A stretch of 64,000 nt of DNA, taken from an uncultured bacterium (GTDB taxonomy: Bacteria > Omnitrophota > Omnitrophia > Omnitrophales > Aquincolibacteriaceae). The notes beneath the pieces are model-generated. The model saw only the letters and a program-made list of their open reading frames with translations, ran no database searches and had not been told where the DNA came from. This document shows positions 5,855 to 43,048 of the stretch, one piece after another (within the stretch, counting starts at the first letter, position 1; every line of letters begins with the position of its first letter). A program made the position numbers and the translations under genes. Location: the NCBI GenBank assembly GCA_964482725.1, contig CAYZYT010000008.1, positions 3,255 through 67,254 on the forward strand, in the 5' to 3' direction.

Positions 5855-5860
5855 GTTGCC

Positions 5861-5950
5861 GGGAACGGTGAGCGGGTAACGCTTTGTTCTGCGCTTCCCG
5901 AGATTTCCTGCAAGATTTTTTTGTTCTCCGTTTCCCGTTCCCCGTTTCCC
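5861..5950. promoter_or_regulatory. imperfect inverted repeat (GGGAACGGTGAGCGGGTAACG ... CGTTTCCCGTTCCCCGTTTCCC) in the giant-ORF/metH intergenic region, with triplicated CCGTTTCCC words; possible terminator/attenuator or operator
   Basis: Arms 5861-5881 and 5929-5950 are about 17/21 complementary. A TTAATAT -10-like box lies just downstream, before the metH ATG at 5970. Confidence 0.3.
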
Positions 5951-5969
5951 GTGTTAATATATCCGCTCT

Positions 5970-8900
5970 ATGACTCATCCACTCCTTAAAAAACTTAATG
6001 AGAAGGTCCTTGTGTTCGACGGGGCGCTGGGGACGAATCTCCAGACGCTCAATCTCACGAGCCAGGACTTCGGCGGCAAAGACGGCTGCAATGAATATCT
6101 GGTGATCACCAAGCCCGACGCCATCCGGAGCGTCCACGAAAGTTTCCTCAAGGCCGGCTGTGACGTGATCGAGACCGATACGTTCGGCTCCAATCGCATT
6201 GTCCTTTCCGAATACGGTCTCCAGGACCGCGTTGTGGAACTGAATGAAAAGGCCGCGCGCCTTGCCAAAGAACTCGCCCAGAAATATTCCACGCCCGATC
6301 ATCCTCGGTTTGTCATGGGCTCGGTCGGCCCCGGGACGAAGCTTCCGTCGCTCGGGCATATCGGTTTCGAAGAACTCAAGGAATCCTACAAAGAACAATA
6401 CAAGGGGCTCATGGCCGGCGGGGTGGACGGCCTTCTGATCGAGACCTGCCAGGACCTGCTTCAGACCAAGATCGCCATCATTGCCGCAGTGGAATACTTC
6501 AAGGAGGTCGGCCGTCGGCTGCCGCTCATGGCGCAGGTGACTTTGGAACCGACCGGAACGATGCTCCTTGGTACCGATATTCAGGCCGTGATCGCGACAC
6601 TTGAGATGTTCCCGGTGGATGTGATCGGGATGAATTGCGCGACCGGGCCTGCCGAAATGGCCGAGCATGTTCGAACGCTTTGTGAGAGTTCCATCAAGCA
6701 TATCTCCGTGCTGCCGAATGCCGGGCTTCCGGAGAATGTCGGCGGCGTGGCCCATTATCACCTGACGCCCAAGGAGCTCGCGGATTACCACGAGCGCTTT
6801 GTCAAAGAATTCGGAGTCTCGATCGTGGGCGGCTGCTGTGGCACGACGCCCGAGCATTTGAAAGCGGTTGTGGAGCGCGTCGGAAAATGTGTTCCCAAAA
6901 AGCGGACGCCCAAGCATGAACCGGCCTGCGCAAGTCTCTACGGTATCTCGACCTACGCCCAGAAGCCCGCGCCGCTTCTCGTGGGCGAACAGACCAACGC
7001 GAACGGCAGCAAGAAATTCAAGCAGCTCCTGGAACGTGAAGATTATGATGCGATCGTGGGCGTGGCGCGCGAAGCCGTGAAAGAGGGCGCGCATCTTGTA
7101 GATCTTTGTGTGGCCTATGTCGGGAGAGATGAGAAAAGGGATATGATCGAATCCATCAGCCGCTTCAACCAGCAGGTGACGGTGCCGGTGATGATCGATT
7201 CGACGGAGTACGCCGTGATCGAAGAGGCGCTGAAGCATATCGCGGGAAAGCCCATCATCAACTCGATTAATCTCGAGGACGGAGGCGAACGGCTGCGCAA
7301 GATCTGCCCCATGGCGAAAAAATACGGGGCAGCGCTCGTGGCCCTTACGATTGATGAAAAGGGGATGGCGAAGACGCGCGAAGAAAAGCTCCGCGTCGCC
7401 AAGCGCATCTATCAGATCGTCACCCAGCAATACGGCATCCGGCCGGAAGATATTTTCTTTGATCTGCTGACCTTTACGCTCGGGAGCGGCGCCGAAGAGT
7501 TCCGCAATGCTGCGCCCGAGACGATCGGGGCCATTCGGCGGCTCAAGAAAGATCTGCCCGGCGTTCAAACCATTCTCGGAGTCAGCAATATCTCGTTTGG
7601 CCTTGCGCCGCATGCCCGGCAGGTTTTGAACAGTGTTTTTCTTCATGAATGTCTGGAGGCGGGACTCGATGCCGCGATCGTGCATGCCAAGAAGATCGTG
7701 CCGCTTTTCAAGATCGCGGCCGATGATCTGGAGGCGGCGAAGAGACTTTTGCATAACAAATGGATCGACGGGAAAGATCCTCTTCAGGAATATATTGCGC
7801 ATTTTTCGAAGAAACAGGGAACGGTCGAGGGACCCCGCGAGCGGGCGGGAACGGTCGAGGACCGGGTGAAGAACCATATTCTTGACGGGAATTCGGACGG
7901 CCTTGTCGAGGATCTGGAGGAGGCTCTTAAAAAATACAAGCCGCTTGAGATCATCAATGAATTCCTCCTGGGCGGCATGAAAGTGGTCGGGGAGCTTTTC
8001 GGTGCGGGGAAGATGCAGCTTCCGTTCGTGCTTCAGTCGGCGGAGGTCATGAAAAAGGCCGTCGCGCATCTTGAAAAATTCATGGAGAAAAAAGACGGCC
8101 AGGATCGAGGCCGGATCGTGCTGGCGACCGTCAAAGGCGACGTCCATGACATCGGGAAAAATTTAGTCGACATCATTCTGACCAACAACGGTTACAAGGT
8201 TTTCAATATCGGGATCAAGCAGCCGGTCGAGGCGATCATCAAAGCGGCGATCGAGAACAAAGCGGACGCGATAGGGCTTTCCGGATTGCTCGTGAAGTCG
8301 ACCCTGATCATGAAAGAAGATCTTGAGGAGATGCACCGGCGCGGGATCAAGATCCCGGTGATCTGCGGGGGTGCCGCGCTTACGGAACGCTTCGTGGAGC
8401 GTGATCTCACGCAGGCCTATCAGGGCCCGGTTCATTACGGGCGCGATGCCTTTTCAGGTCTCAAGATCATGGAAAGTCTTAAAAGTCCTGTTGTGGTATC
8501 TTCCAAAGAATTGCCGAAAGTCGTTGAGAAGATCGTCCCCGTGCCTTCGGTTGCGGCAAAACCTGCCCCGGTCGCTCCTCCAGTTCAGCCCGCTCCGCCT
8601 GTCTCCACACCGCGGCGAGTGGACGGAGTTCCGCATAGTGAGCCGAGGCCGCGAGGCCCTTCATTCCATGTCCACCGGGATAATCCGATCCCTCAGCCGC
8701 CGTTCTTTGGCTACCGGATCCTCAAGAGTCTCCGGATGCTGGATATTTTCCCATGGACCAACAAGATCGCACTTTACCGGGCGCAGTGGCAGTTCAAGCA
8801 GGGGGACAGGACGCCGAGGGAATTTGAACTTTATCTTCAGGAGAATGTCGAACCCATTTTTGAGCGGTTCAAGGCCCAGACGATCCGTGAAAAGATCCTG

Positions 8901-9643: not shown

Positions 9644-11431
9644 CTATTTTTTTGCCGCAGCCGCGAGTTTATCCGCAAGCGTTCGGTATTCCTGCCAGAT
9701 CGCCTCGGGCATATGGGAGCCGAACTGCTCAAGGTATTTCTCGATCTCCTTGAGTTCGTCGGCCCATTCCGAAGGGTTCACGGAAAAAAGCTGCTCGATC
9801 TTATCCTGCGGGATGTTGAGCCCCGAGAGATCGAAGTCCTGGGTCTCCGGGATGATCCCGATCGGTGTTTCTTTGGCGCCTCCCTTGCCGTCAATGCGGT
9901 CGATGATCCACTTCATGACGCGGATATTATCCCCGAAGCCCGGCCAAATGAATTTGCCGTTCTCGTCGGTGCGGAACCAGTTGATGGAGTAGATCTTGGG
10001 CGCGTGCTTGAGCTTTTTCCCGAAATTGAGCCAGTGCGCGAAATAGTCGCCCATGTTGTAACCGCAGAAGGGAAGCATCGCCATGGGATCGCGGCGCGTG
10101 GCGCCGACCGTAAGCGCCGAAGCGGCGGCAGTGATCTCCGAGCCCATGCGGGTTCCGATAAAAACACCCTGCTGCCAGTTCAGGGCTTCAGCGACGAGCG
10201 GGACGAGTTTCGCGCGCTTTCCGCCAAAAAGGATCGCCGAGATGGGAACCCCTTGCGGGTTGTCGACTTCTTTGGAAAGGCTGGGGCAGTTATACATGGA
10301 GACCGTGAACCGGGAATTGGGATGTGCGGCCTTGGTTCCTTTGGAAGCGTCCCAAGGATCCCCTTTCCAATCCTCGACATTTTTTGGGACGGCGCCGTCG
10401 AGTCCTTCCCACCAAGGTTCGTTCGTGTCCTTATCGATCGCGGTGTTCGTGAAAAGCGTCGGGAAGAATTTGTTATTCTTGAGAGTTTCCACCATTTTTG
10501 GATTTGTCTTAAGCGATGTCCCCGGAGCGACCCCGAAGAATCCGGCCTCGGGATTGATCGCGTAGAGCCGTCCATCCGGACCGATGTTGAGCCAGGCGAT
10601 ATCATCGCCGACGGTCCAGACCTTGTAACCCGGGAGCGCGGACTGCATGAGCGCCAGATTCGTTTTCCCGCAAGCTGAGGGGAGTGCTGCTGCGATATAA
10701 GTGACTTTGCCCTTGGGGTCTTCGATCCCCATGATGAGCATGTGCTCGGCGAGCCAGCCTTCTTTTTGTCCGAGGCAGGACGCGATGCGAAGCGCAAAGC
10801 ATTTCTTCCCGAGAAGCGCGTTTCCGCCGTAGCCGGAGCCGAAGCTTTGAACAAGGTTCTCTTGGGGATAATGCATGATGAAACGGCGTTCAGGATTGAG
10901 ATCGCCGATCGAGTGGAGACCGCGCACGAAATTTTCGGTGTTCCCGATACGCTCAAGCGCTTCGTTGCCCATGCGGGTCATGATGCGCATGCTGACGGCG
11001 ACGTAGCAGTTGTCCGTCAACTGGACACAGGCTTTGGCGTAAGGGGATTTCGGATGTCCCATCATGTAAGGCATGACATACATCGTGCGGCCTTTCATGC
11101 AGCCGTCGAAGAGGCCGGCCATTTTGGCCTTGGCTTCTTTCGGGTCCATCCAGTTGTTGTTGGGTCCCGCCATTTCTTTGTCGGGATGGCAGATAAAAGT
11201 CAGCTGCTCTGTTCGCGCGACGTCATTGGGATGAGAATGATGATAATAAGCATTCGGCCAGGTCTTGTCGTTCAACTTTTCGAAAATGGGTTTTCCATTG
11301 AGTCGCTCTTCCTTGATGCCGACCTCGATCAGTCTCTTGGCTTCGGCTTCCGTGCCGTCGCACCAGTAGATCTTGGAAGGCTTGGTCAGTTTGGCTTGTT
11401 CTTCTACCCATTTTTCAAGCGGCGTCGTCAT
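9644..11431 (-). CDS. pckG: phosphoenolpyruvate carboxykinase (GTP)
   Basis: Motifs GSGYGGNALLGKKC and PSACGKTNLAM typical of GTP-PEPCK. Start placed at MTTPLEKW, preceded by GGAG, rather than at the longer ORF start at 11635. Confidence 0.9.
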   Translation of the reverse strand: MTTPLEKWVEEQAKLTKPSKIYWCDGTEAEAKRLIEVGIKEERLNGKPIFEKLNDKTWPNAYYHHSHPNDVARTEQLTFICHPDKEMAGPNNNWMDPKEAKAKMAGLFDGCMKGRTMYVMPYMMGHPKSPYAKACVQLTDNCYVAVSMRIMTRMGNEALERIGNTENFVRGLHSIGDLNPERRFIMHYPQENLVQSFGSGYGGNALLGKKCFALRIASCLGQKEGWLAEHMLIMGIEDPKGKVTYIAAALPSACGKTNLALMQSALPGYKVWTVGDDIAWLNIGPDGRLYAINPEAGFFGVAPGTSLKTNPKMVETLKNNKFFPTLFTNTAIDKDTNEPWWEGLDGAVPKNVEDWKGDPWDASKGTKAAHPNSRFTVSMYNCPSLSKEVDNPQGVPISAILFGGKRAKLVPLVAEALNWQQGVFIGTRMGSEITAAASALTVGATRRDPMAMLPFCGYNMGDYFAHWLNFGKKLKHAPKIYSINWFRTDENGKFIWPGFGDNIRVMKWIIDRIDGKGGAKETPIGIIPETQDFDLSGLNIPQDKIEQLFSVNPSEWADELKEIEKYLEQFGSHMPEAIWQEYRTLADKLAAAAKK

Positions 11432-12420: not shown

Positions 12421-13647
12421 TCAGGAGCGTATAACGCCGAGCGATTTCGCGATCCTTGCAAAAACGTTGATGGCGCGTTCGATCTCTTGCAAAGAATGGC
12501 CCGCGGTCACGGTGGTGCGGATCCGGGTGGTGTTGGGCTGGACGGCGGGGGGAAGAATCGGCACAATGAAAATTCCCTCCTGTCTTGCGATGCGGGTCAT
12601 CTCCAAAGCTTTTGCATCGTTGCCGATGATGATCGGGACAATGGGGCTTTGGCTTTTTAAAGTGTCAAAGCCGTTTGCGTGGAGCGTTTTGATGAAGTAG
12701 TGCATGTTTTCATGAAGCTTTTTTACGCGCCATGTTTCTTCCTCAATGACCTCAAAAGAGGCCTTGGCGGCCGCGGCGGAGGCCGGAGGCAGGGAGGCGG
12801 AAAAAATAAAGGGACGGATCGAATGGCGCAGATAGTTGATGAGTTTGGAATTCCCGGCGATATAACCGCCGATCGAAGGGATCGTTTTGCTCAAGGTTCC
12901 CATTTTGATATCGATGAGGCCTTCCGCCGGATCGATCCCGAAATGTTCCTCGATGCCGGTGCCTTTTTTCCCGAGAACGCCCAGCGAATGAGCTTCATCG
13001 ATCATGAGAAGGGCTTTGTATTTCCGGCAAAGGCGGATCACTTCCGGGAGGTTGATGATATCGCCGTCCATGCTGAAGACGGCATCGGCCACCACGAGTT
13101 TGGCCCCTTTCTTGGGGGCCTCGCTGAGGGTCTTTTCAAGGGATTCCATATCATTGTGCTCAAACCTCAGAAAATGAGCCCTTGAGAGGATGCAGCCGTC
13201 CACGATGCTCGCATGGTTGACCTTGTCAGAAATAACCACATCGTTACGACCGAGAAGAGCGGAGATCGTCCCGGAATTGGCGCCGTAACCCGTCGAAAGA
13301 GCGATCGCCTCCTCGGTTTTCTTGAAAGAAGCGATCTTTTTTTCGAGTTCCAGATGAATGCGGGTGGTTCCCGTCAGGAACCGGACCCCGTGAGTGCCGG
13401 TCCCGAATTCTTCAATGGCTTTTTTGGCGGCGGCATTGATCTTCGGATGTCCCAAAAGATCTAGATAAGAATAGGATGAAAATTGAAGCAGGGGGCGGCC
13501 CTGGATCGTGATGTGAACGCCGTCCACGGCGTCTGAAGAATGCATGTAGGGATACACATCCTGTTCCTTAGCTTTCCGAATGCGGGTGTTCAGCATCTCG
13601 ATCCGGGCGAGGAAAGTTCTTTGACCAAAATTTTCGGATTTATTCAT
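12421..13647 (-). CDS. alpha-oxoamine synthase family PLP enzyme, most similar to serine palmitoyltransferase (Kbl/BioF alternatives not excluded)
   Basis: FSSYSYL, TLSKTIPSIGGY (PLP lysine) and RPFIFSASLPPA resemble Sphingomonas Spt (RPYIFTASLPPS, TFSKSVG). The C-terminus also resembles Kbl. 408 aa with an N-terminal extension of about 45 aa. Confidence 0.8.
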   Translation of the reverse strand: MNKSENFGQRTFLARIEMLNTRIRKAKEQDVYPYMHSSDAVDGVHITIQGRPLLQFSSYSYLDLLGHPKINAAAKKAIEEFGTGTHGVRFLTGTTRIHLELEKKIASFKKTEEAIALSTGYGANSGTISALLGRNDVVISDKVNHASIVDGCILSRAHFLRFEHNDMESLEKTLSEAPKKGAKLVVADAVFSMDGDIINLPEVIRLCRKYKALLMIDEAHSLGVLGKKGTGIEEHFGIDPAEGLIDIKMGTLSKTIPSIGGYIAGNSKLINYLRHSIRPFIFSASLPPASAAAAKASFEVIEEETWRVKKLHENMHYFIKTLHANGFDTLKSQSPIVPIIIGNDAKALEMTRIARQEGIFIVPILPPAVQPNTTRIRTTVTAGHSLQEIERAINVFARIAKSLGVIRS

Positions 13648-13652
13648 GAGAT

Positions 13653-14210
13653 TTATTCCTTCACTAAGAAAAGTTGACTGTTGTGAACTTTATAGAACAT
13701 GGGCGCGACTTTAACTTTAGGGTAACGAAGACGAAGCCGCTTCACCTCGCTTAAGACGAAATCCGTTTCATTGCCGATCTCGAAGAGGTGGGAAGAGATC
13801 CTGAAATGTTCTTCAGCGTCCTTTTTCTTCCAACCACCTTTTTTGACGAGCCCTTTGATGAACAGGTCTTTGCGCGCGGGGAGGTTGACCATCCCGCAGT
13901 GGTCGTGGGTGATCAGCGCGATATGAGAAACACCGCCAACCGCGATCGCATAAGAGACTTTGAACTCGCTGTAACGGAGATTCGCACCGCCCGTTCGCAG
14001 CACGAAAGCGAAATTGTCGGGGATATGCAGAAGCTTGCGGCTGTCCATGCACATGCCGATGAGCAGTTGCGCTTGAGAATAGGGCTTGAAAGGGCGGCCA
14101 AGATTCTGGTATTCCAGGAGACGTCCGATCGGAGTGTTCCTGTATTTGGTCGGGATGTCCGAGATTTTTTGGATCGAAATAAGACGGCGCATGTATTTCC
14201 AATAATCCAT
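13653..14210 (-). CDS. beta-class carbonic anhydrase-like protein
   Basis: CMDSR (CxDSR) and HDHCGM (HxxCG) zinc-ligand motifs. Stop lies 5 nt before the Spt-like start, so it is probably co-transcribed. Confidence 0.65.
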   Translation of the reverse strand: MDYWKYMRRLISIQKISDIPTKYRNTPIGRLLEYQNLGRPFKPYSQAQLLIGMCMDSRKLLHIPDNFAFVLRTGGANLRYSEFKVSYAIAVGGVSHIALITHDHCGMVNLPARKDLFIKGLVKKGGWKKKDAEEHFRISSHLFEIGNETDFVLSEVKRLRLRYPKVKVAPMFYKVHNSQLFLVKE

Positions 14211-14516
14211 TCTTGAACCGCTGCAAAAAAACGAGTGAGAAAATCGAGCCCCTGACCCCTAATCGCCGCAATCAGGCTCTTGAGTTCGACAAAGTTTATC
14301 CATCTTTGACCGAGATGTCCATAAAATCTAAGGGTTTGTCCGGCCCAAGAAGTTTTTTACAACAGCGGGTGTAGAAAAGCATAGATAGCTGCTTGGGGGT
14401 TGGGGGAGGTAGAATGGGTTTGTGAGAAAAAGGACAAAGGTGGGAAGGTCGTTTTCGTTTTTTTCCTTCTCCAACAGAAGGATTTAAGATAGACTTTTGC
14501 GCGAAAGTGGCCTTGA

Positions 14517-15974
14517 ATGACGGAGAGAAATGTCGTGAGCGAAAGAACTTCTGTTCCTGTGGATGTCAACGCGATCATGGAAAAAGCGGCCTGTGCGGCG
14601 GCCGTTTTTAGCCAGTTGGACCAAGCGCACACTGACCGGATCGTCCGGGCGGTGTATGAAGCGGGCTTTAATAATCGCGTTCGATTGGCCAAGCATGCCG
14701 TGGAAGAGACGGGGGTCGGGAACTGGCAGGACAAGGTTCTTAAAAACGTAGTGGCCACCCAGCTTGTCTACGATGATATCAAGGATCATAAAACCGTCGG
14801 GATCATTTCCGAGGACAAGGAGCGCGGGATCACGGAGATCGCCCAGCCGCTCGGCCCCATTTTTGCGGTGATCCCGGTGACGAACCCGACCTCGACGGTG
14901 ATGTTCAAGATCCTGATCGCGCTGAAGACGAGAAACCCCATTATTATTCATCCTCACTCGCGTGCCCTGCAATGTTCCCAAGAGGCCGCCCGTATTTGCT
15001 ATAACGCGGCGCTTGCGGAAGATGCTCCGGAAGATTGCATCCAGTGGCTGGATAAAACGTCGCGCGAAGAAACCCATAAGCTGATGCAGCATCCCAAGCT
15101 GGCGCTGATCCTGGCGACCGGCGGCGGAAGCCTTGTCAATGCCGCCTACAGCTCGGGAACGCCGGCGCTCGGAGTCGGTGCCGGGAACGTGCCGGTCTTT
15201 ATTGAAAGAAGCGCGGACATCTCCTTCGCCGTAGAACAGATCCTCATTTCAAAAACATTCGACAACGGGACGGTCTGCGCCAGCGAGCAAGCCCTTGTTG
15301 TGGAGCGGCCGCTTGCCGAAAAAGTGATCGAGGAATTCAAGAAAAGAAACGCCCGCGTGCTTTCCGATGACGAGGTCCGGCGCCTTGAAAAAATAGCGTA
15401 TGACCCGGAGCGCATGATCATGACCATGGCCGTGGTGGGAAAAACGGCGCCGGAGATTGCAAAGCTTGCGGGGATCGATGTCCCGCCCCAAACAACACTT
15501 CTCATTGCGCCGCTTGAGGGGATCGGAAGGGCCCATCCTCTTTCGGCGGAGATCCTGGCGCCTATTCTTGCGTTCTATGTCGCCGAAGATTTCGAGCATG
15601 CGGTCAACCTGTGCATCGACCTCAACTATTTTGGCGGGATCGGGCATACGGTGAGCTTGTTTTCCAATGACGAGGCGAAGATCAAAAAATTTGCCTCGGT
15701 CATGAACGCGGGCCGCGTGGTCGTGAATTTGCCTTCATCCCAGGGAGCGGTCGGCGGGATCTATAACACGCTTCACCCGTCATTTACGCTGGGCTGCGGC
15801 ACCGGCGGCAAGAACATCACGACAGACAACATCACGACGAAGCATCTGCTGAATATCCAGCGTATCAGCCGGCGCCGTGTGAACCGGCGCCTCGAGAGCT
15901 TCGACAAAGCGCATTATCTGGATGAATCCCTGGATGCCAAAGCCATTGAAAAGGAATTTAACCGGAACTTCTGA
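14517..15974 (+). CDS. CoA-acylating aldehyde dehydrogenase (EutE/PduP/AdhE-N family)
   Basis: 485 aa. Catalytic-Cys motif FDNGTVCASEQ and overall ALDH-fold pattern. Confidence 0.85.
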   Translation: MTERNVVSERTSVPVDVNAIMEKAACAAAVFSQLDQAHTDRIVRAVYEAGFNNRVRLAKHAVEETGVGNWQDKVLKNVVATQLVYDDIKDHKTVGIISEDKERGITEIAQPLGPIFAVIPVTNPTSTVMFKILIALKTRNPIIIHPHSRALQCSQEAARICYNAALAEDAPEDCIQWLDKTSREETHKLMQHPKLALILATGGGSLVNAAYSSGTPALGVGAGNVPVFIERSADISFAVEQILISKTFDNGTVCASEQALVVERPLAEKVIEEFKKRNARVLSDDEVRRLEKIAYDPERMIMTMAVVGKTAPEIAKLAGIDVPPQTTLLIAPLEGIGRAHPLSAEILAPILAFYVAEDFEHAVNLCIDLNYFGGIGHTVSLFSNDEAKIKKFASVMNAGRVVVNLPSSQGAVGGIYNTLHPSFTLGCGTGGKNITTDNITTKHLLNIQRISRRRVNRRLESFDKAHYLDESLDAKAIEKEFNRNF

Positions 15975-16043
15975 AAGCCTCTAACGAAATGCGTCATGCT
16001 GTTCGGCGCTCGAGGCGCATTGCCAACGGAACGGGAGGAATGC

Positions 16044-16337
16044 ATGGTCAACTACATCGACGGGACGGAGAAGCTCATCTGCTGCTTTGAAGACCGGATG
16101 GATACGGTCCAATGCCTGGCCGTCGAAAAAGAGATCTTTGAGAAGATCCAGGGCGTGGGGATTCCCGTTGTTTTTGATCTCGAGAAAGTCGTTTATATCG
16201 CATCTTCGTTCTTGCGTATTTGCATCCGGGCCTGCAAAACGGTCGGTGCGGAAAGATTTTCATTGGTCCATGTGTGCCCCGAGATCAAAAAGGTTTTTAA
16301 AATCGCGGGTTTCGACAGGCAGATCAATATTCAGTGA
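16044..16337 (+). CDS. STAS-domain anti-sigma-factor antagonist (RsbV/SpoIIAA-like) 1
   Basis: About 97 aa. VVFDLEKVVYIASSFL segment with the conserved Ser. GGAGG RBS before the ATG at 16044. Confidence 0.7.
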   Translation: MVNYIDGTEKLICCFEDRMDTVQCLAVEKEIFEKIQGVGIPVVFDLEKVVYIASSFLRICIRACKTVGAERFSLVHVCPEIKKVFKIAGFDRQINIQ

Positions 16338-16391
16338 TCGCACCGTTAATCTTTCCGGAAATGAGACCGGTTTAAACAAAGGAGGAATTCC

Positions 16392-16787
16392 ATGGCATTC
16401 AGCGTTAAGATCGAGAACCGTGAAGCAGGCACGTGCGTGATGGCTCTTGAGGGCCGGCTGGACGCCACGACGTACCTTTCCCTTGAAGAAAAGATGAATA
16501 CTCTCCCGGGAACCAAAATCAAGGCGTTGGTACTGGACTTGGGGAAACTGGCTTATATTTCGAGCGCCGGCGTGCGCGTGATCCTGAAAGCCCGGAAAAT
16601 GATGGCAGCCGTCAGCGGCACCCTTCTGATGACGAACCCCCAGCCGCAGATCCGGAAAGTTTTCGAGATCGTCAATGCGCTTCCCGATACGCCGATCTTT
16701 GAAAGTGTCGAGGAGGCCGATCAGTATCTCGATACCATGCAGAGGGAAGAAATTGAAAAGCAAAGGCGTCTTTCGGATCCGCAATAG
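16392..16787 (+). CDS. STAS-domain anti-sigma-factor antagonist (RsbV/SpoIIAA-like) 2
   Basis: LVLDLGKLAYISSAGVRVIL with a phosphorylatable Ser. AAAGGAGG RBS. Confidence 0.8.
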   Translation: MAFSVKIENREAGTCVMALEGRLDATTYLSLEEKMNTLPGTKIKALVLDLGKLAYISSAGVRVILKARKMMAAVSGTLLMTNPQPQIRKVFEIVNALPDTPIFESVEEADQYLDTMQREEIEKQRRLSDPQ

Positions 16788-16797
16788 ACCTTCCTTG

Positions 16798-17820
16798 ATG
16801 CCTCCGACCCACCGGGGTTCTTTAACGAAGCTTCTTACGGCCTTTTTTTTTGTCGCCGTCCTTCTGTCCTTCGTCCCCCCCTCACTTTTTGCCGAGGAGA
16901 ACGTTTCTCTTAAAAAAGTAACCTTCATGACCTTGTGGCTTCCTCAGGCGCAATTCGCCGGTTTCTATGCCGCGCAGAAGAAGGGGATCTATAAGAAATA
17001 CGGTCTTGATGTCACGATCCTTCACGGGGGGCCGAGCCGGTCTCCGTACGATTTTCTTGAGAAGGGCAGGGTCTCTCTGGCGATGCTGTGGCTGGCCACC
17101 GGGATCGAGAAACGCGCACAGGGAGCGAAGATCGTCAATGTCGCCCAGTTGTCACAAAAAGCGGCGTTGATGCTCGTCGCTAAAAAAGAGAGCGGGATCA
17201 AAGAACCCAAGGATCTTGAGGGGAAGAAGGTCGGGCTTTGGGACGAGATCTACCAGGTCCAGCCGCGCGCGTTCTTCGAGAAATTCGGACTTCACGTGAA
17301 AGTGGTTCCGCAGTCCTATTCCGTCAACATGTTCCTGCGGGGTGGCGTTGACGTGGCTTCTGCGATGTGGTTCAACGAATATCACACGATCCTGGCGTCG
17401 GGCGTGGACCCGGAAGAGCTCACGACGATCTTTTTTTCTGAGCATAGTCTGAACTTTCCTGAAGACGGGCTTTACGTCCTGGAAGCGACGCTGGCAAAAG
17501 ATCCCGAGCGCGTCGCCGCGTTCGTGAAGGCGTCCCTGGAAGGATGGCAGTATGCGTTCGACCACCCGGAGGAAGTGCTGGTCCTGGTGATGCGGAACAT
17601 GAAAGAAGCGCATGTCCCCGCGAGTCTCGCGCATCAGAAATGGATGCTCGCGCGGATGAAGGACCTTATGCAGCCGGCCGGAGGAAAGCGCCTGCCGGGA
17701 ACGCTTGCCGAGGAAGATTTTAAGCGGACGGGCGAGGCCTTGAAAAAGAGCGGACTGATCGCCACGGTTCCGCGCTTCGAGGAATTCTACAAGTTCGGGG
17801 GGATCCGGGATGAAGGATAA
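16798..17820 (+). CDS. periplasmic substrate-binding protein, NMT1/THI5 (NitT/TauT) family
   Basis: Signal peptide LLTAFFFVAVLLSFVPPSLFA followed by an NMT1-like fold pattern (LPQAQFAGFYAAQKKG...). Start at the internal ATG is uncertain. Confidence 0.7.
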   Translation: MPPTHRGSLTKLLTAFFFVAVLLSFVPPSLFAEENVSLKKVTFMTLWLPQAQFAGFYAAQKKGIYKKYGLDVTILHGGPSRSPYDFLEKGRVSLAMLWLATGIEKRAQGAKIVNVAQLSQKAALMLVAKKESGIKEPKDLEGKKVGLWDEIYQVQPRAFFEKFGLHVKVVPQSYSVNMFLRGGVDVASAMWFNEYHTILASGVDPEELTTIFFSEHSLNFPEDGLYVLEATLAKDPERVAAFVKASLEGWQYAFDHPEEVLVLVMRNMKEAHVPASLAHQKWMLARMKDLMQPAGGKRLPGTLAEEDFKRTGEALKKSGLIATVPRFEEFYKFGGIRDEG

Positions 17821-20173
17821 AAGCATTGCCTTCAAGCTCAGCTTTTTCGTTCTGACCTTTACGGGCCTTATTTTTGCCGGTATTTTCGGATACAACTATT
17901 TTGTTTCTCGCCAGATGATCCTGAAGAACATCGAGGAGAACGCGCGAAACCTTTCGGTTGCGACCGCCCAGCGCATTGAGACGGTCCTGCGTTCTGTCCA
18001 GGAAGTTCCGGAAACTGTCGCCGAAGTGTTGCAGGAGATCTCTTACGACAAGGCGGTCCTGAACCGGCTTTTAAGCACGGCGGTCGAGAATAATCCCGCG
18101 ATTTACGGCTCCACGGCGGCGTTCGAGCCGGGTTCTTTCGAAAAAGGCGCGCAGTTCTTTGCGCCGTACTTTTATAAAAGCGGCGGCGGGATCCAATTTA
18201 CCCATCTCGGAGGGAATGACTACCGGTATTTTTTCTTTGACTGGTATCAGATTCCCAAAGAGCTCGGTCGCCCGTCGTGGACGGAGCCCTATTACGACGA
18301 AGGCGGCGGCAATGTCATTATGTCCACGTATTCGGCCCCTTTTTACCGGCGCGAAGGGGGAGAAAGAAAATTCGCGGGCGTGGTGACGGCGGACGTGTCC
18401 CTCGGATGGCTTCAGAAAATGGTCTCCGAGATCAGGATCGCCAAAACCGGCTACGCCTTTCTTATCTCCCGGAACGGGACGTTCGTGACGCATCCCCATA
18501 AATCGCTGATCATGAACGAAACCCTTTTTAGCACGGCAGAGGTCCGGGGAGACCGGCATTTGCGGGAGGTCGGAAGAGATATGATCCGAGGTCACTCCGG
18601 GTTTGTTCCGTTCACCTCCCTTGTTTCGGGCCAGGCGTGCTGGATGGGGTATGCGCCGGTCCCGTCCACGGGATGGTCGGTCGGCGTTATTTTTCCCAAG
18701 GACGAACTTTTGGCGGATGTTCAGCGTTTGGGCCGGATCGATCTTGCCTTAGCGTTCTGCGGGTTTCTGATCCTTTTTTCGGTCATCGTTCTGATCTCGG
18801 GTTCCATCACGCGTCCTTTGAGAGCCCTCGCGGATGCGGCGAAGGCTCTTGCAAAAGGGAATTGGGAGATCGAGCTTCCTCCCGCGAGATCAAAAGATGA
18901 AGTCGGGACCCTCTCCGCTTCCTTCCTATATATGAAGGAAGCCCTGAAAAAATACATCCGGGAACTCACGGAAACGACGGCGGCCAAGGAGCGCATGGAA
19001 GGTGAGCTCAAGGTCGCTCACGAGATCCAGATGAGCCTCGTCCCAAAAGTTTTCCCGCCTTTTCCGAAAAGACCGGAGCTGGATATTTATGCCGTGCTGG
19101 AGCCCGCCCGAGAAGTGGGCGGGGATCTTTATGATTTTTTCTTTATCGACGAGAACCGGCTTTGCTTCGTGATCGGTGATGTCTCCGGGAAGGGGGTTCC
19201 CGCCGCTCTTTTCATGGCGATGACCAAAACGCTGATCAAGACGAACGCCAAAATGTGTACGAGCCCGGAGGAGATCCTGGAGAAGGTCAATGTCGAGATC
19301 TCGGAGGGCAACGATGCGTGCATGTTTGTCACGGTGTTCTGCGGCATCCTGGACACCCGGACAGGAGAGGTTTGCTATTCGAACGGCGGCCACAATCCCC
19401 CGTTTATTCTCCGGAAAGGGCAGGCGCCCGAATTTTTGCGCGGCGGCCACAGTCCGGCTGTCGGCGTCCTGGAAGACGCTGTGTTTGAAAAGGCCGGTCT
19501 CAAGATGGAGCCGGGAGATGCCCTTTATCTTTATACCGACGGAGTGACAGAAGCGTGCGATGATCAAGACGAGCTTTTTTCCGAAGAGCGATTGCAGGAG
19601 ATGCTTTCCGGGCCGGTCCCGGGATCTCTCAAGGGACTCGTGGAAAAAACGCTTCAAGAGGTTCGTTCCTTTTCGGGCGCGATGCCTCAAGCCGATGATA
19701 TTACTCTCCTGGTGTTGAGATATTATGGCGCTCGCGGAGAAGAAAAAGAGGGGGGCAAAATGAAATTGATGCTTGAGAATAAACTCACCGAGCTTTCGAA
19801 ACTTCAGGGAGCGCTCGCAGAGTTCTCGGGAAAAGTCGGTCTGTCCCAAGAAGTCCTTCATGACCTGCAGCTGGTTTTGGAAGAGATCGTGGTCAATGTC
19901 ATTTCCTATGCCTATGCGGACACCGCGAGGCATGAGATCGTCGTCTCTCTTGAAAAAGAGGGGAGTGAGCTCGCCGTCCGGGTGCAGGACGAAGGCCGGG
20001 CATTCGACCCGCTCAAGGTTCCCGAACCGGACCTGGACGTGCCTGTGGAAGAGAGGCCCATCGGAGGTCTCGGGATGCACCTGGTCCGCAATCTGGCGCG
20101 GGAAGTGAACTATGAAAGAGTCCAGGGCAAGAATATTCTCACCTTGAAGATCTCTCTTCCCACTGCTTCCTGA
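17810..20173 (+). CDS. membrane sensor-HAMP-PP2C phosphatase (RsbU/SpoIIE-like) fused to RsbW-like anti-sigma serine kinase (HATPase)
   Basis: N-terminal TM, periplasmic region of about 280 aa, second TM and a HAMP domain. PP2C motifs GGDLYDFF and IGDVSGKGVPAALFMA. C-terminal HATPase_c_2-like region (EEIVVNVISYAYAD...GGLGMHLVRNLA). Confidence 0.85.
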   Translation: MKDKSIAFKLSFFVLTFTGLIFAGIFGYNYFVSRQMILKNIEENARNLSVATAQRIETVLRSVQEVPETVAEVLQEISYDKAVLNRLLSTAVENNPAIYGSTAAFEPGSFEKGAQFFAPYFYKSGGGIQFTHLGGNDYRYFFFDWYQIPKELGRPSWTEPYYDEGGGNVIMSTYSAPFYRREGGERKFAGVVTADVSLGWLQKMVSEIRIAKTGYAFLISRNGTFVTHPHKSLIMNETLFSTAEVRGDRHLREVGRDMIRGHSGFVPFTSLVSGQACWMGYAPVPSTGWSVGVIFPKDELLADVQRLGRIDLALAFCGFLILFSVIVLISGSITRPLRALADAAKALAKGNWEIELPPARSKDEVGTLSASFLYMKEALKKYIRELTETTAAKERMEGELKVAHEIQMSLVPKVFPPFPKRPELDIYAVLEPAREVGGDLYDFFFIDENRLCFVIGDVSGKGVPAALFMAMTKTLIKTNAKMCTSPEEILEKVNVEISEGNDACMFVTVFCGILDTRTGEVCYSNGGHNPPFILRKGQAPEFLRGGHSPAVGVLEDAVFEKAGLKMEPGDALYLYTDGVTEACDDQDELFSEERLQEMLSGPVPGSLKGLVEKTLQEVRSFSGAMPQADDITLLVLRYYGARGEEKEGGKMKLMLENKLTELSKLQGALAEFSGKVGLSQEVLHDLQLVLEEIVVNVISYAYADTARHEIVVSLEKEGSELAVRVQDEGRAFDPLKVPEPDLDVPVEERPIGGLGMHLVRNLAREVNYERVQGKNILTLKISLPTAS

Positions 20174-20396
20174 TCTTTTTTAAACGAAGCGCGGAAAACG
20201 GCGGTGATCGCCGAGCGTTCTGAGGGCCCAGTCTTTAGTTTCTTTTTATAAAGGACGATGCATCTTCCGTGCTCTGAAGGGTTCCTCGAAAACAGGGGCC
20301 TTTAGCATCCTTCCGGCGCTGGCGCTCATTGAAGCATTGTTGTTTTCAGGGGGCCGGATTTTCAGCAGGGCTCCAGAAGCATTGAGGTGTGGAAAA

Positions 20397-22031
20397 ATGA
20401 AAAAAAGAAATCGGACGCTAATTAAATCAGGGGCGGTGGCCACCGTCGTTTTTTTCTTTTTTTTATCGACGGCAACGGCTTCGGTCGAATTGATCGGCCC
20501 CGAAGGAAAGCTGAAGCGTCCTGAAAACAAAGATTTTACCGTGACGACCGACGGGTATTGGGCGACCGATTTTGTGGCGTCCAAGAACACCGTCGATCTT
20601 GACAGCAAGCAGAAGAAAGATAAATACGGCTACATCGGTATGGCCTATCGCCTCAACGTGGACGCGACTTATAAAGACGACGTTGAGGTTTTTTTAGGCT
20701 TTGAGCGCAATGGACCGTATGGCTATGACGTGCCCGTTCTGGGGCGGAAGTCCCTGCCCTCCATTTATGGCGATTTGGAGCATTATCGCAACCGGGAGTT
20801 TCTCCCGGAGCTCAAGGAATGGTTTTTGGACGTCAAATCCCCTTGGACGGAGGCCTATCCCGTTCGTGCGAAGGTCGGTCTTTTTCCGCTCGAGATCGGG
20901 AACGGCTTTGCGGTCACCGGCCTCTACCAAAATTATGGGGTCCAGCTCTATCATCCCGGGGAAATTCTCGCCTGGCATTTCAATTACATTAAACCGAACT
21001 GGAGTAATTACGCCATTTTGGGTCCGACCCTCCCGCAGGAGAAATTTCTGGGACGCGGGTATTTCCACACCCAGGCCGACCTTTTTTCGCTCGACGCGGT
21101 TTATCATTGGAAAAAGCCCGAAGGCGCGTCCTGGATCATTCCGGGAGGCTCGCTCCAGCCCTATGTCAGTTTTCTCTCGGACCGGACGGGGGACCTGAAG
21201 CGCAAGAACCTTTTTGAGACTCAGACGCATCAGGATCTTTTGGGAACTCTGGGGGCGGACCTGAATCTGGAGTTCGGTCGGCTTTCGCTCGGCTTTGAAG
21301 CCGCAAGAAATTTCGGAAGGGCCAAAGCCACTGAGGGGGATGCCCCGTTTGACCCCGCGACCGGGGCGTCCATCGCCGGTGATAAGGACGTTATCCACAA
21401 AGGGTATCTTCTCTATGCGGACGCCGCGTTCGATCTGAAAGAATATTGGCTCACGCCGCGCACCAAGGTGATCGTGACCTCAGGGAATAAAAACAATGAT
21501 TCCTCCGACGGCCTTCTTCACGGCTCCACGAACCGGGCCTTCAGTGTTTTCTCGCCGATGAACACCCATTTGTCGTACAGTGTTTATCCTCCTCAAAAAT
21601 TAGCCCCGCTCCTTTTTATGGGAAATGCGTTGGGGAATAACTACGGGGTTCTCCGGCCGGGGACTTTTAATGATCCGGTTCTTTTCGAGAACATCATCAC
21701 GCCTAATGTCGGTGTGAACATCACGCCCCATCCCAAGGTCATCCTCACGATCGATTGGTGGTATTTTTCATCGTTCGAGCAGGGCGTGGGGTCCTGGGAC
21801 GGGGTCTCCAAAAAACTTTCGAGAGATCTTGGGAACGAGTTTGATTTTGGCGCGACGATCGACGCGACGAAATGGCTGACCCTGAATTTCGGCCTAGGCT
21901 ATTTCATCCCCGGGGATTATTACCGGGCAGAGCGGAATGACGATGGGACCGTTTTCAGCCCCCGCGCCAACACAGACGGAGTTGCGAACAAAGCCATTTA
22001 TTTCGAGAACCGAATCACGGTAAAGTTTTAA
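20397..22031 (+). CDS. outer-membrane beta-barrel protein, unknown family
   Basis: Signal peptide after MKKRNRT with GAGGTG RBS. Alternating amphipathic pattern and a C-terminal ...ITVKF ending in an aromatic residue. Confidence 0.55.
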   Translation: MKKRNRTLIKSGAVATVVFFFFLSTATASVELIGPEGKLKRPENKDFTVTTDGYWATDFVASKNTVDLDSKQKKDKYGYIGMAYRLNVDATYKDDVEVFLGFERNGPYGYDVPVLGRKSLPSIYGDLEHYRNREFLPELKEWFLDVKSPWTEAYPVRAKVGLFPLEIGNGFAVTGLYQNYGVQLYHPGEILAWHFNYIKPNWSNYAILGPTLPQEKFLGRGYFHTQADLFSLDAVYHWKKPEGASWIIPGGSLQPYVSFLSDRTGDLKRKNLFETQTHQDLLGTLGADLNLEFGRLSLGFEAARNFGRAKATEGDAPFDPATGASIAGDKDVIHKGYLLYADAAFDLKEYWLTPRTKVIVTSGNKNNDSSDGLLHGSTNRAFSVFSPMNTHLSYSVYPPQKLAPLLFMGNALGNNYGVLRPGTFNDPVLFENIITPNVGVNITPHPKVILTIDWWYFSSFEQGVGSWDGVSKKLSRDLGNEFDFGATIDATKWLTLNFGLGYFIPGDYYRAERNDDGTVFSPRANTDGVANKAIYFENRITVKF

Positions 22032-22745: not shown

Positions 22746-24221
22746 ATGAATCTCAATAAATTCCCTCAAAGCATTCGCCGGTTTTGGTCGCTTTGGCTTG
22801 TCATTGCCGCTTCAACGCTCGTCACCATCGGCTTCGTCATCGCCTGCTTCGCCTCCGGCTTTTTCATCATTGTTCAAAATCTCTTTTACATTCCCATTAT
22901 CCTCGCCTGCCTCTATTACACAAAACGTGGGTTCGTATTCTCTCTGGCCATTGCAGGCATCTATGTTTTTCTCACCTTCGCCTTTACACATGAACATACG
23001 GTAATCCTGCAGGCTTTTGTCCGGGCCGGCATCTTCGTGCTCATTGCAGGTATCATTACCACCCTGTCATTAGAGCGTAAGCGGGCCGAGGAGTCGCTGC
23101 GGGAGAGTGAGAACAGGTATCGAAATATCTTTCAGTCGTCTCGTGATGCCATTATGACGATCGAGCCGCCGTCCTGGAGATTCACTTCCGGAAACCCGGC
23201 AACCATAAAAATGTTTAAGGCGAAGGATGAAGCGGAGTTTTTGGCCTGCGTCCCCTGGCAATTATCTCCCGAACGGCAGCCGGATGGGAGACCCTCGGAT
23301 GAGAAGTCGAAAGAGATGATAGAAACGGCTATGCGTGAAGGCTCCAATTTCTTTGAGTGGACGCACAAACGGACGAGTGGCGAGGTCTTCCCTGCAGAGG
23401 TGTTGTTGTCGAAAATGGAACTGGACGGAAACGTATTTCTTCATGCAGTTGTCCGGGATATCACCGAGCGCAAGACAGCCGAGGCGGAGATCATGAAGGC
23501 GGAGCTTCTCAGGACCCATGCGGAGATCAAATCCAAGTTCGCTTCAATGGTTTCGCATGAACTCCGGAGCCCGCTGGCTATTATCCAGGGGAGCGTCTCT
23601 CTCGTTAAAGACGGTTTGGTAGGGCCGGTCAATGAGGAGCAAAAAGGGATTCTGGGGACGGGGCTCAAGGGCGTCGAGCGACTGGGGCGCTTGATCAATA
23701 ATGTTTTAGATTTCCAGAAGATCGAGTCTGGGAAAATGGAGTACGACATGCGTGAGAATGATATCAAGGAAACAGTTCTTGAGGCCTCTCAAGGCTTGCG
23801 GTTTCTATCGGAACCCAAGGGCCTGGATCTCCGGGTGCAGCCCCGGGATATCTTGCCCAGGATAAAATTTGACAAGGATAAGATCATCCAGGTGCTTATT
23901 AACTTGATCAGCAATGCCATAAAATTTACCTCCCAAGGGAGTGTCACGATCAACATTCAACGGGAAAATAATACGGCGCATGTGGAGATCCGGGATACCG
24001 GGCCGGGGATCAAGGCCGAAGATATCCCCAGGCTTTTTCAGCCCTTTGAACAGCTCGACAAAGGAAGAGGCAGGGCTAAGGGCGGTACGGGCTTAGGGTT
24101 AGCTATTTCAAAAGAGATCGTTCTCGCTCATGGCGGAAAGATATGGGCCGAGTCAGAGATCGGCAAAGGAAGCGCTTTTCACTTTACACTGCCTGTTCTG
24201 GAAAACAGGAGACCGGTATGA
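22746..24221 (+). CDS. membrane sensor histidine kinase (4-TM, PAS, HisKA, HATPase)
   Basis: H-box SHELRSPL and G2 box [14 protein letters not shown]. Paralogous, at about 60% identity in the kinase core, to the HK at 43049-46090. Confidence 0.85.
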
Positions 24222-24580
24222 CAAAGAAGATCCTGGTGGCCGATGACGAACCCGAGTTGCTTGAACTGACTTTGCTCCGGCTGAAAAAGACGGGTTATGA
24301 TGTATTCGGGTCGGCGGACGGCCGGGAGGTCCTGGAGCTGGTTCGCCAACAAATGCCCGATCTGATTATCCTGGATGTCTACCTTCCGGTAATCGACGGC
24401 GATGAGATCGCCAAGCTATTCAAGAAAGATGAAAAGATGAAACACATTCCGGTCATTCTGATTTCGGCGACCACCCAGACCCTCGAAGAGAGGGCCAAAG
24501 AATGCGGCGCGGTCGGTTATTTTTCAAAGCCGTTCGACCCTGGAGACCTGGTCACTATGGTCAAGAAGCATATTGGCTAA
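24218..24580 (+). CDS. single-domain response regulator (CheY-like receiver)
   Basis: DDEPELLEL...[10 protein letters not shown]...K. About 65% identical to the RR at 46103-46468. Confidence 0.85.
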
Positions 24581-34517: not shown

Positions 34518-35138
34518 GTGAATTCTATCAAGAATTATCTGCAGGTCTTTCAGCGCCGGGTACTGGACGGGATCGTCAAACATTTCGCCCACGGCGCGCT
34601 TGAGGCTCGGGCGGAAAAGATCGTTCAGCTTTTTGAAAATCAGATCCCGAGGGGAAGCCGGATCCTGGATTTGGGAGGCGGGTGGGGTTTTTACGCAGAG
34701 CCTCTCAAAAAGAGAGGGCACGAGCATCTCGTTTTGGACGTCGTGAACCCGGGCTATCAGAAGGCCCCTGTGGTGCTGTATGACGGCCTGAAGATCCCGT
34801 TCCCGGATCAAAGTTTTGATGTCACGATCCTCATGACCATGTTGCACCACGTGCCGGACCCGCAGGCGCTTTTTAAAGAAGTGCTCAGGGTGACGCGCCA
34901 CAAGGTCGTAGTCGTCGAGGATCTCTATTGCCACGCAGCGGGGCGGTTCTGGACCATTTGTAGAGATCGTTTTTTAAATGTAGAGTTCACAACTCATCCG
35001 CACCAGTTCCGTTCGGATGGTGGCTGGCGGGATTTTTTTAAAGCTTCGGGTTTTGAGGTCAGCTCTTTTAAAAGTTTTTATACTTGGCTTTCAGGATTTC
35101 GCATCCTGAATGGTGTTTACGTTTTGGAGAAATCGTAA
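34518..35138 (+). CDS. class I SAM-dependent methyltransferase
   Basis: Motif I ILDLGGGWGFY and post-I acidic residue. GTG start. A TATAAT box lies at about 34477. Confidence 0.75.
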   Translation: MNSIKNYLQVFQRRVLDGIVKHFAHGALEARAEKIVQLFENQIPRGSRILDLGGGWGFYAEPLKKRGHEHLVLDVVNPGYQKAPVVLYDGLKIPFPDQSFDVTILMTMLHHVPDPQALFKEVLRVTRHKVVVVEDLYCHAAGRFWTICRDRFLNVEFTTHPHQFRSDGGWRDFFKASGFEVSSFKSFYTWLSGFRILNGVYVLEKS

Positions 35139-35170
35139 CCAAATGTCATCCCCGCTGGAAGCATTCAGGG

Positions 35171-35602
35171 ATGACAAAGGGAAGATATCGAACGATGACA
35201 CGGCTTGCGATCGAAAAGATACTCTGGATCAAAGAAGGTGAGGGCATTACGGCCTGTGGCCGTATCCCAGAGGATTCCGAATTTTTTAAGGACCATTTCC
35301 CGGGGTTCCCCGTGTTGCCGGGGGTGTTGGCGCTTGAGATGCTTAAGCAGACTGCGGAGCGGTATCTGGCGTCCCTTCCGAGCGGTGAAGGACAGCATTA
35401 TTTCTTGAAGCAGATCCGAGCGACCCGGTTTACGAAATATCTCAGGCCCGGCGATGAATGGGAAAGTCGTCTCATGCTCACGCAAAGCGAGGGAGAGGAA
35501 ACGACCTGGGACGCTAAATTGTTTTATCACGGCGATGTCGCCGTATCGGCCAAGTTGACGTTGGCCAAAGTTAAGAACCCGCAATCATCAGCAGTGTCAT
35601 AG
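35171..35602 (+). CDS. FabA/FabZ-like hotdog 3-hydroxyacyl-ACP dehydratase (DH1)
   Basis: FPGFPVLPGVLALEMLKQ active-site region. Confidence 0.75.
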   Translation: MTKGRYRTMTRLAIEKILWIKEGEGITACGRIPEDSEFFKDHFPGFPVLPGVLALEMLKQTAERYLASLPSGEGQHYFLKQIRATRFTKYLRPGDEWESRLMLTQSEGEETTWDAKLFYHGDVAVSAKLTLAKVKNPQSSAVS

Positions 35603-35624
35603 ACAACTTAGGAAGGACGATAGA

Positions 35625-36607: not shown

Positions 36608-36608
36608 C

Positions 36609-37076: not shown

Positions 37077-37081
37077 TCTTC

Positions 37082-43008: not shown

Positions 43009-43048
43009 AGCACGCGGGAATGACATGGGGGAGTTAAGAGGAGCAGTC

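Follow-up and report, generated by a model that had tools for sequence, protein, structure and literature searches.

The subject of this analysis is a cluster of five genes arranged head to tail on the forward strand at nt. 14517–20173 of a 64,000-nt stretch (hereafter, the window) of contig CAYZYT010000008.1, which derives from an uncultured member of the Omnitrophota. As read from the list of open reading frames (ORFs), the cluster encodes a probable acylating acetaldehyde dehydrogenase (ALDH), two small STAS-domain proteins (STAS1 and STAS2), a periplasmic solute-binding protein (SBP), and a 787-amino acid (aa) protein in which a transmembrane (TM) sensor, a serine phosphatase, and a serine kinase share one chain. 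The joining of phosphatase and kinase is itself ordinary; the interest of the locus lies in two conserved and apparently undescribed links, one to the SBP and one to ALDH. Its features are as follows.

14517–15974, forward strand: probable acylating acetaldehyde dehydrogenase (ALDH), the operon's opening gene, conserved on the 5′ side of STAS1-type genes
16044–16337, forward strand: STAS1, a 97-aa RsbV-like protein of the "S1" subfamily tied to ALDH; predicted phospho-serine S54 (codon 16203–16205)
16392–16787, forward strand: STAS2, canonical anti-sigma-factor-antagonist type with a charged C-terminal tail; predicted phospho-serine S58 (codon 16563–16565)
16798–17820, forward strand: SBP, an orphan periplasmic protein of the NMT1/THI5 (ThiY-like) class with an N-terminal signal peptide (Pfam NMT1)
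17810–20173, forward strand: 787-aa sensor-phosphatase-kinase, comprising TM1, dCache, TM2, HAMP, helical linker, PP2C, and RsbW-like kinase
17915–18730, forward strand: periplasmic double-Cache (dCache_1) sensor domain, aa 36–307 (Pfam and PDB matches)
18791–18949, forward strand: HAMP domain, aa 328–380 (Pfam HAMP, 47.9 bits)
18995–19723, forward strand: PP2C/PPM (SpoIIE/RsbU-type) serine phosphatase domain, aa 396–638 (Pfam SpoIIE; RssB alignment)
19775–20149, forward strand: RsbW/SpoIIAB-type GHKL serine kinase domain, aa 656–780 (Pfam HATPase_c_2)
20220–20248, forward strand: terminator-like hairpin and T-run, 47 nt past the stop codon of the fusion; a possible operon end on weak evidence

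The intergenic gaps measure, in order, 69, 54, and 10 nt, the stop codon of the SBP gene overlaps the start of the fusion gene by 11 nt, and good ribosome-binding sites precede the start codons of both STAS1 and STAS2; the five genes therefore fit a single transcription unit. The STAS1 ORF opens at 15996, which an earlier note on this DNA had taken as the beginning of the module, but the start codon most likely lies at 16044, where a GGGAGGA ribosome-binding site stands before an ATG, the product matches the 97-aa length of its relatives, and the gene caller concurs. Likewise, the SBP ORF opens at 16675, an unlikely start; the most likely one is 16798, the methionine ahead of the signal peptide and just past the STAS2 stop codon. 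As the STAS1 subfamily travels with an upstream ALDH gene, we have set the start of the functional unit at 14517 rather than at 15996. A terminator scan of the region was weakly informative (16 terminator-like sites compared to 9.4 expected from shuffled sequence), and a promoter scan was uninformative, returning 3 sites compared to 3.3 expected and none on the forward strand upstream of the operon.

The layout that the earlier note had read in the 787-aa protein, namely a TM segment, a periplasmic region, a second TM segment, HAMP, PP2C, and an RsbW-type kinase, was borne out by Pfam. Hydrophobic segments at ~aa 6–32 and ~311–333, read from the translation, bracket a dCache region of ~280 aa, which scored 75 bits with dCache_1 and 107 bits with MCP-like_PDC_1 (aa 36–293) and matched PDB structures 3li8, 3lib, and 3lic with E values of 1e-22 to 1e-25. 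The HAMP domain is followed by a helical linker (~aa 381–410, ELTETTAAKERMEGELKVAHEIQ), conserved in an alignment of the window protein with 13 homologues (alignment A1), and the PP2C aspartates D439, D457, D577, D629, and D630 are invariant in the same alignment. The SpoIIE match covers aa 447–638 (177 bits, E 4e-52), while the PP2C structure of RssB (3es2) aligns over aa 396–636; a further RssB structure (3eq2) and SpoIIE phosphatase structures also align. The C-terminal kinase, without which the earlier proposal would have lost its footing, was recovered by domain search as HATPase_c_2 at aa 656–780 (86.6 bits, E 2e-24, three times the Pfam cutoff), and alignment to Bacillus subtilis RsbW (6m36) displayed the N-box (E..N) as well as the G1 and G2 motifs (DEG..FD and GGLG). 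The NCBIfam RsbW model gave 40.8 bits on this domain, below its cutoff. The structure of the Mycobacterium tuberculosis PP2C-kinase protein Rv1364c (3ke6) matches aa 427–719, that is, across both domains, and Pfam returned no match to a REC (receiver) or PAS input domain anywhere in the protein. Elsewhere in the window, the only other Cache-type sensor is a 1042-aa histidine kinase (nt. 42962–46090) with a weak dCache-like N-terminus (27.5 bits, below cutoff) followed by GAF and PAS domains; no SBP gene adjoins it.

These motifs indicate that the catalytic parts of both the phosphatase and the kinase are intact. This bears on the idea of a futile or degenerate module, in which one of the two opposing domains would be inactive, leaving the protein as nothing more than a phosphatase or a scaffold. 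The sub-threshold NCBIfam RsbW matches fit that idea, as does the lack of any nearby kinase in 9 of the 33 loci in which a relative of the sensor is paired with an SBP gene (see below). Against this, the metal-binding aspartates and the kinase N, G1, and G2 motifs are all kept in the window protein and in its fused relatives, and the HATPase_c_2 score stands far above its cutoff. We consider a degenerate module very improbable.

The earlier note had called the fusion of RsbU-like and RsbW-like parts unusual, which did not hold: among the best 120 homologues listed, mostly named as Omnitrophota, the majority are full-length proteins of identical architecture, and fusions of this type have been studied experimentally in HsbR, CrsR, SypE, and Rv1364c (compared below). 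Shorter relatives (~645 aa) without the kinase share 57–59% identity with the window protein over the common part. We found four module orders, two with the kinase fused (STAS, SBP, sensor-PP2C-kinase; and SBP, sensor-PP2C-kinase, STAS) and two with the kinase as a gene of its own (STAS, kinase, SBP, sensor-PP2C; and SBP, sensor-PP2C, kinase, STAS). Fused and split forms lie side by side in Ignavibacteria (locus L010 versus L011), and the same contrast is seen in Bacteroidales (L023, L024, and L049 against L026, L032, and L047), which argues that fusion or fission happened repeatedly. The fused and separate-kinase forms should be functionally equivalent. The domain content thus supports placing the module among partner-switching-type sets (a PP2C phosphatase, an RsbW-like kinase, and STAS proteins with a predicted phospho-site serine), as a sub-kind with fused PP2C and kinase.

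The gene between the STAS genes and the fusion encodes, as previously noted, an NMT1/THI5-family SBP (Pfam NMT1 PF09084, 137 bits compared to a cutoff of 20.5), with a hydrophobic leader read from the translation as ...FFFVAVLLSFVPPSLFA/EE. Its AlphaFold2 model (pLDDT 90.3) adopts a class II periplasmic-binding fold, and the nearest structures by Foldseek are ThiY (3ix1, TM-score 0.71/0.80) and a thiamin-bound protein (4nmy), with TM-scores in the range of 0.7–0.8.

To follow the SBP across genomes, we used domain-wise hidden Markov models (HMMs) built from the window proteins on 87 loci, with a homologous sensor defined as one scoring at least 150 bits. These replaced a first iterative HMM pass in which whole ORFs were aligned and the sensor, PP2C, and kinase profiles had merged. 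Of the 46 loci with a homologous sensor domain, 33 have an SBP gene directly 5′ of the sensor gene and in the same orientation (26 of 39 when restricted to independent species genomes), compared to none of the 33 loci whose PP2C carries a different N-terminal sensor. Gaps between the two genes range from -65 to +67 nt and are mostly overlaps of 4–17 nt. The pair occurs across about ten phyla, with cases in Omnitrophota, Desulfobacterota, Ignavibacteria, Bacteroidales, Verrucomicrobia, Acidobacteriota, and Bacteriovoracaceae, among others, and also in Rhodopseudomonas palustris, Methylovulum, and Thiocapsa; the adjacency persists through all four gene orders. Conservation of the SBP equals that of the sensor (52–60% identity across phyla), and among its top 120 matches the SBP is always a single-domain protein of ~330 aa. 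Together, these comparisons point to a link between SBP and sensor that is real and old.

This co-occurrence search had been proposed in the earlier note, along with the concern that the SBP gene might belong to a separate transporter operon in relatives; instead, the SBP proved tied to the sensor, and the suggestion that it serves as a co-sensor thereby gains comparative support. The alternative is that the SBP is an ordinary transport component for an ABC transporter encoded elsewhere, only co-regulated with the switch, while dCache binds its ligand directly and without a partner. In public annotations such proteins do carry names like "ABC transporter substrate-binding protein" and "NitT/TauT family", direct binding of small ligands is usual for dCache domains, as in the many chemoreceptors matched, and 13 of the 46 homologous sensors have no SBP beside them. 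A mere transport role sits poorly with an adjacency, mostly of overlapping stop and start codons, that survives several gene-order rearrangements across some ten phyla and never extends to other sensor types. As the earlier note had stated, no ABC permease or ATPase lies next to the operon: among ~46 window ORFs scanned with Pfam (nearly all non-overlapping ORFs of at least 150 aa), no NMT1-type permease or ATPase adjoins it, and the nearest ATPases are at 49383 (FtsX/MacB-type) and 59796 (Mla-type). Among the 33 paired loci, 27 lack an ABC ATPase within 8 kb. Six have one, and in the five of these that we inspected (all but L013) it belongs to an ABC_sub_bind/BPD_transp_2 system with binding domains of its own. 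A role in transport alone is, in our judgement, unlikely. In the open-access literature, we found no description of an SBP paired with RsbU/PP2C, or of NMT1 with SpoIIE, and a 2021 review of SBP-dependent signalling makes no mention of PP2C, SpoIIE, RsbU, or NMT1, with "phosphatase" appearing once in a general list of receptor types (PMC8050422).

Both STAS genes upstream of the SBP encode the putative phospho-site serine that had been ascribed to them. In STAS2 (Pfam STAS, 62.5 bits; STAS_2, 38 bits), alignment with SpoIIAA (1h4y/1th8) places S58 opposite the phosphorylated serine of the DSSG motif, and STAS2 orthologues precede the SBP gene in all Omnitrophota-type loci that we examined. STAS1 barely passes the Pfam STAS cutoff (23.2 bits compared to 22.6; TIGR00377, 37.9 bits). 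Its AlphaFold2 model (pLDDT 92.6) superposes on RsbV from the RsbV/RsbW complex (6m36_B) with a TM-score of 0.90 and a root-mean-square deviation of 1.3 Å by Foldseek, and S54, at the position of S58 in STAS2, is invariant in the family alignment (alignment A3) together with F56 and L57. The two proteins had earlier been taken for a pair of RsbV paralogues. With 24% identity between them and different genomic partners, we rejected a recent paralogy; STAS1 falls in a separate subfamily tied to ALDH and is better called a putative ALDH-linked switch protein than a paralogue of STAS2.

The ALDH itself resembles the N-terminal half of AdhE, or EutE (Pfam Aldedh, 103 bits). It scored 588 bits over positions 10–467 of the 872-position NCBIfam AdhE model (cutoff 951), covering the ALDH half only, and 488 bits with the acetylating acetaldehyde dehydrogenase model TIGR02518 (cutoff 620); it matches PDB structures 3k9d and 5j78 and AdhE with E values of 1e-110 to 1e-117, and its translation carries the catalytic-cysteine motif FDNGTVCASEQ.

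Homologues of STAS1 (the S1 subfamily) are 97 aa long, occur in Omnitrophota, Cloacimonetes, Margulisiibacteriota, and Lentisphaerae, and share the motif Y-I/V-A/S-S-S/A-F-L-R-I/V-C, with ~794 representative clusters reaching an E value of 1e-10 or lower. In L003, a STAS protein 59% identical to STAS1 is placed after an ALDH gene ~7.5 kb from the module. A metagenome scan for S1 added 80 loci. The ALDH gene lies directly upstream of S1 in 62 of the 69 assessable loci (gap 5–248 nt, median ~19 nt), and a small RsbW-like kinase gene follows S1 immediately in 14 of 68. Restricting the count to the 15 loci flanked by 4 kb or more in each direction, we found a kinase or PP2C within 5 kb in 11, of the dCache type in 7. 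In two loci (L099 and L106), a fused sensor-PP2C-kinase of 787–788 aa is divergent from the ALDH-STAS1 pair, and S1 is the sole neighbouring STAS. Two distant members of the subfamily also sit directly 3′ of ALDH and beside a dCache-HAMP-PP2C gene, one with a separate kinase and the other with an NMT1 SBP. The window kinase domain scores up to 135 bits against S1-adjacent kinases, as high as against kinases of STAS2/SBP modules, to which taxonomic closeness may contribute. A second tie to the same metabolic node is found in acetyl-CoA synthetases with an S1-type STAS domain at their N-terminus (STAS, ACAS_N, AMP-binding, and AMP-binding_C), encoded at nt. 2685–4991 of L135 and nt. 7377–10199 of L167 (likely start M193). 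Past the fusion gene, L135 also carries two acylating ALDH genes and an unfused S1 STAS. Our search of the open-access literature returned no description of an ALDH or acetyl-CoA synthetase linked to STAS, the STAS-acetyl-CoA synthetase architecture included. We tentatively suggest that S1 STAS proteins could be phospho-regulated subunits for enzymes of the acetyl-CoA node (ALDH and, where fused, acetyl-CoA synthetase), such that partner-switching kinase/phosphatase pairs would govern central fermentative metabolism at the post-translational level and not via a sigma factor; in the window operon, the cue would be extracellular and would arrive via an orphan ThiY-like SBP on the dCache sensor. 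This is a possibility that we hold with clear reservation.

Other proteins were noted around these loci. A DUF6062 gene lies directly 5′ of an ALDH-STAS1-kinase cluster in two unrelated metagenome loci (L113, nt. 3785–4444; L138, nt. 5640–6290). Proteins of 395–420 aa with an N-terminal STAS domain and ~300 aa without a Pfam match recur near PP2C/kinase modules (L003, nt. 13380–14642; L005, nt. 10016–11233; also L004, L008, L021, L023, L053, L059, L072, and L076), with none in the window; those of L003, L004, and L005 sit inside an ABC_sub_bind/BPD_transp_2/ABC_tran cluster. The switch may act on these larger STAS proteins too, as substrates or outputs.

Partner switching is a textbook means of sigma-factor control, and its non-sigma outputs are few and poorly understood. 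The main rival to an enzyme-linked output is accordingly an anti-sigma function towards an unlinked sigma factor, whereby the kinase domain would sequester a sigma factor from some other locus, STAS2 (possibly with STAS1) would displace it once dephosphorylated, and ALDH would merely be co-transcribed. The alignment of the kinase domain with both RsbW and SpoIIAB is in keeping with such a function, as is the canonical antagonist type of STAS2; membrane tethering is compatible with it but unproven. The Pfam scan of window ORFs nonetheless bore out the earlier statement that no sigma factor is adjacent, revealing neither a sigma factor nor an anti-sigma partner, and the genes called around eight homologues likewise included no sigma factor. 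An anti-sigma switch would also leave unexplained the tie of S1 to ALDH and its fusion to acetyl-CoA synthetase. We regard it as rather unlikely, while it is the strongest of the competing explanations.

We therefore weigh the five genes at nt. 14517–20173 as a partner-switching-type phospho-switch with periplasmic input, the output of which is probably not a sigma factor, a reading that in our estimate stands evenly balanced between right and wrong. Several points weigh against it. In CrsR and HsbR, which share the order of PP2C and kinase, the kinase domain binds RpoS, whose gene lies elsewhere (PMC6482189). The adjacency of ALDH and STAS1 could reflect mere co-expression, and the STAS-acetyl-CoA synthetase fusion is found in only two loci. 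On the input side, the existence of homologous sensors without an SBP means that dCache may sense its ligand alone, and the identity of the SBP to ThiY (3ix1) and 4nmy is only 21–22%, too low to name a ligand. Finally, the metagenome and genome scans covered 600 pattern matches each, and the counts given here are samples, not censuses.

Under the phospho-switch reading, the pathway would run as follows. The secreted orphan SBP would bind a small molecule and dock on the dCache domain of the sensor in the manner of LuxP on LuxQ or, alternatively, would modulate direct ligand sensing by dCache. By analogy to the linker mechanism proposed for RsbU, RssB, and HAMP-linked PPM phosphatases (PMC12143880), the signal would pass via TM2, HAMP, and the helical linker to switch a dimeric PP2C on or off. 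The kinase of the same chain is predicted to phosphorylate S58 of STAS2 and S54 of STAS1, and the phosphatase to reverse this, such that the sensor would set the phospho-states of both proteins. Either the phosphorylated or the unphosphorylated STAS proteins would then bind their targets. For STAS1, the likeliest target would be the co-encoded ALDH or the acetyl-CoA node, as suggested by the conserved gene order and the domain fusions, and the switch would thereby make carbon and redox flow in fermentation responsive to an external cue. STAS proteins that act on non-sigma partners have precedents in HsbA, which binds the cyclase HsbD (PMC6482189), and in SypA, which acts on a non-sigma target (PMC8256260).

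The module is widespread yet unstudied, occurring in Omnitrophota, Desulfobacterota, Bacteroidales, Ignavibacteria, and even R. palustris; the SBP-sensor module is thus also present in cultured relatives, R. palustris JSC-3b being one. Should the SBP prove to be a co-sensor, it would be the first SBP-dependent receptor with a PP2C phosphatase as output, a class missing from the current review of SBP signalling. Should the STAS subfamily tied to acetyl-CoA/acetaldehyde enzymes act on them, direct phospho-control of fermentation flux would be suggested. If neither idea holds, the locus is another member of a common signalling architecture.

Around the operon, an unannotated 185-aa gene (nt. 13653–14210, reverse strand; weak sub-threshold Pro_CA match) lies 5′ of ALDH, in the place that the DUF6062 gene takes in L113 and L138. 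Just downstream of the operon is a porin-like gene (nt. 20337–22031; weak Alginate_exp match of 23.7 bits, below cutoff), which we considered as a member of the module and rejected, as it recurs only on the window's own contig. Further 3′ are a PAS histidine kinase (nt. 22746–24221) and a single-domain response regulator (nt. 24143–24580), neither conserved with the module in relatives. The rest of the window contains a 1933-aa ORF (nt. 53–5854) whose sole Pfam match is to a metallo-beta-lactamase (aa 152–318, 32.5 bits), the other ~1600 aa being unannotated, and a lipid or polyketide-like cluster (nt. 35084–40744) comprising a FabA-like dehydratase, a 4′-phosphopantetheinyl transferase, two beta-ketoacyl synthases, and an NAD_binding_4 ("male sterility") fatty-acyl reductase, with a GT2 glycosyltransferase nearby (nt. 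41320–42486, reverse strand). At nt. 51718–56999, an ATP:guanido phosphotransferase (McsB-like protein arginine kinase), a DUF4140/DUF4139 protein, and a ClpC/ClpB-type AAA+ chaperone occur in a row, an arrangement that resembles a protein quality-control set of the McsB-ClpC type into which a DUF gene has been inserted.

Among known systems, HsbR-HsbA of Pseudomonas aeruginosa and CrsR-CrsA of Shewanella oneidensis resemble the operon in having PP2C followed by an RsbW-like kinase/anti-sigma domain in one polypeptide, with a STAS gene adjacent. HsbR and CrsR have the order REC-PP2C-kinase, and both enzymatic domains act on the STAS protein (HsbA or CrsA), whose phospho-state selects its partners, including the non-sigma enzyme HsbD (PMC6482189). 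Their input is a cytoplasmic receiver fed by a phosphorelay, whereas the window operon has a transmembrane dCache-HAMP sensor and a dedicated periplasmic SBP; it also contains an ALDH gene and encodes two STAS proteins that belong to separate subfamilies, and sigma binding is known for HsbR and CrsR only. In SypE-SypA of Vibrio fischeri, similar to what we propose here, a dual serine kinase/phosphatase controls a STAS protein with a non-sigma target (PMC3610818, PMC8256260). SypE differs in its order (kinase, REC, PP2C), in the lack of a membrane sensor and an SBP, and in its output, a biofilm polysaccharide. M. tuberculosis Rv1364c (3ke6) likewise joins PP2C and an RsbW-like kinase in one chain, but has PAS input and a STAS domain in that same chain, is cytoplasmic, and has no SBP.

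The earlier note had likened the locus to the chlamydial Rsb system, and the likeness is a loose one. It extends to a transmembrane RsbU with a periplasmic ligand-binding domain and to two RsbV-type STAS proteins, RsbV1 and RsbV2 (PMC11619594), whereas the chlamydial system keeps RsbW as a protein of its own, lacks both an SBP and a link to ALDH, and has RsbVs that are not known as an enzyme-linked subfamily. A non-classical target is also debated for the chlamydial system (PMC11619594; Soules et al. 2020, as cited in PMC8256260). ThiY and the thiamin-binding SBP (3ix1, 4nmy), the closest relatives of the window SBP in both fold and sequence despite their low identity, serve ABC importers. LuxP-LuxQ and other SBP-dependent receptors offer the nearest parallel for the input, with an SBP gene beside a transmembrane receptor whose periplasmic domain is of a double PAS/Cache-like type, as here (PMC8050422); in those systems the SBP binds the ligand and serves as co-sensor. 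The known outputs of such receptors are histidine kinases, chemoreceptors, GGDEF/EAL proteins, and Ser/Thr kinases (PMC8050422), while in the window the output domain is a PP2C, the SBP is of the NMT1/ThiY class, and its complex with the sensor is a proposed one. Relative to its known kin, the module is thus distinct in its input, a dCache-HAMP sensor with an orphan SBP, and probably also in its output, an ALDH-linked STAS protein.

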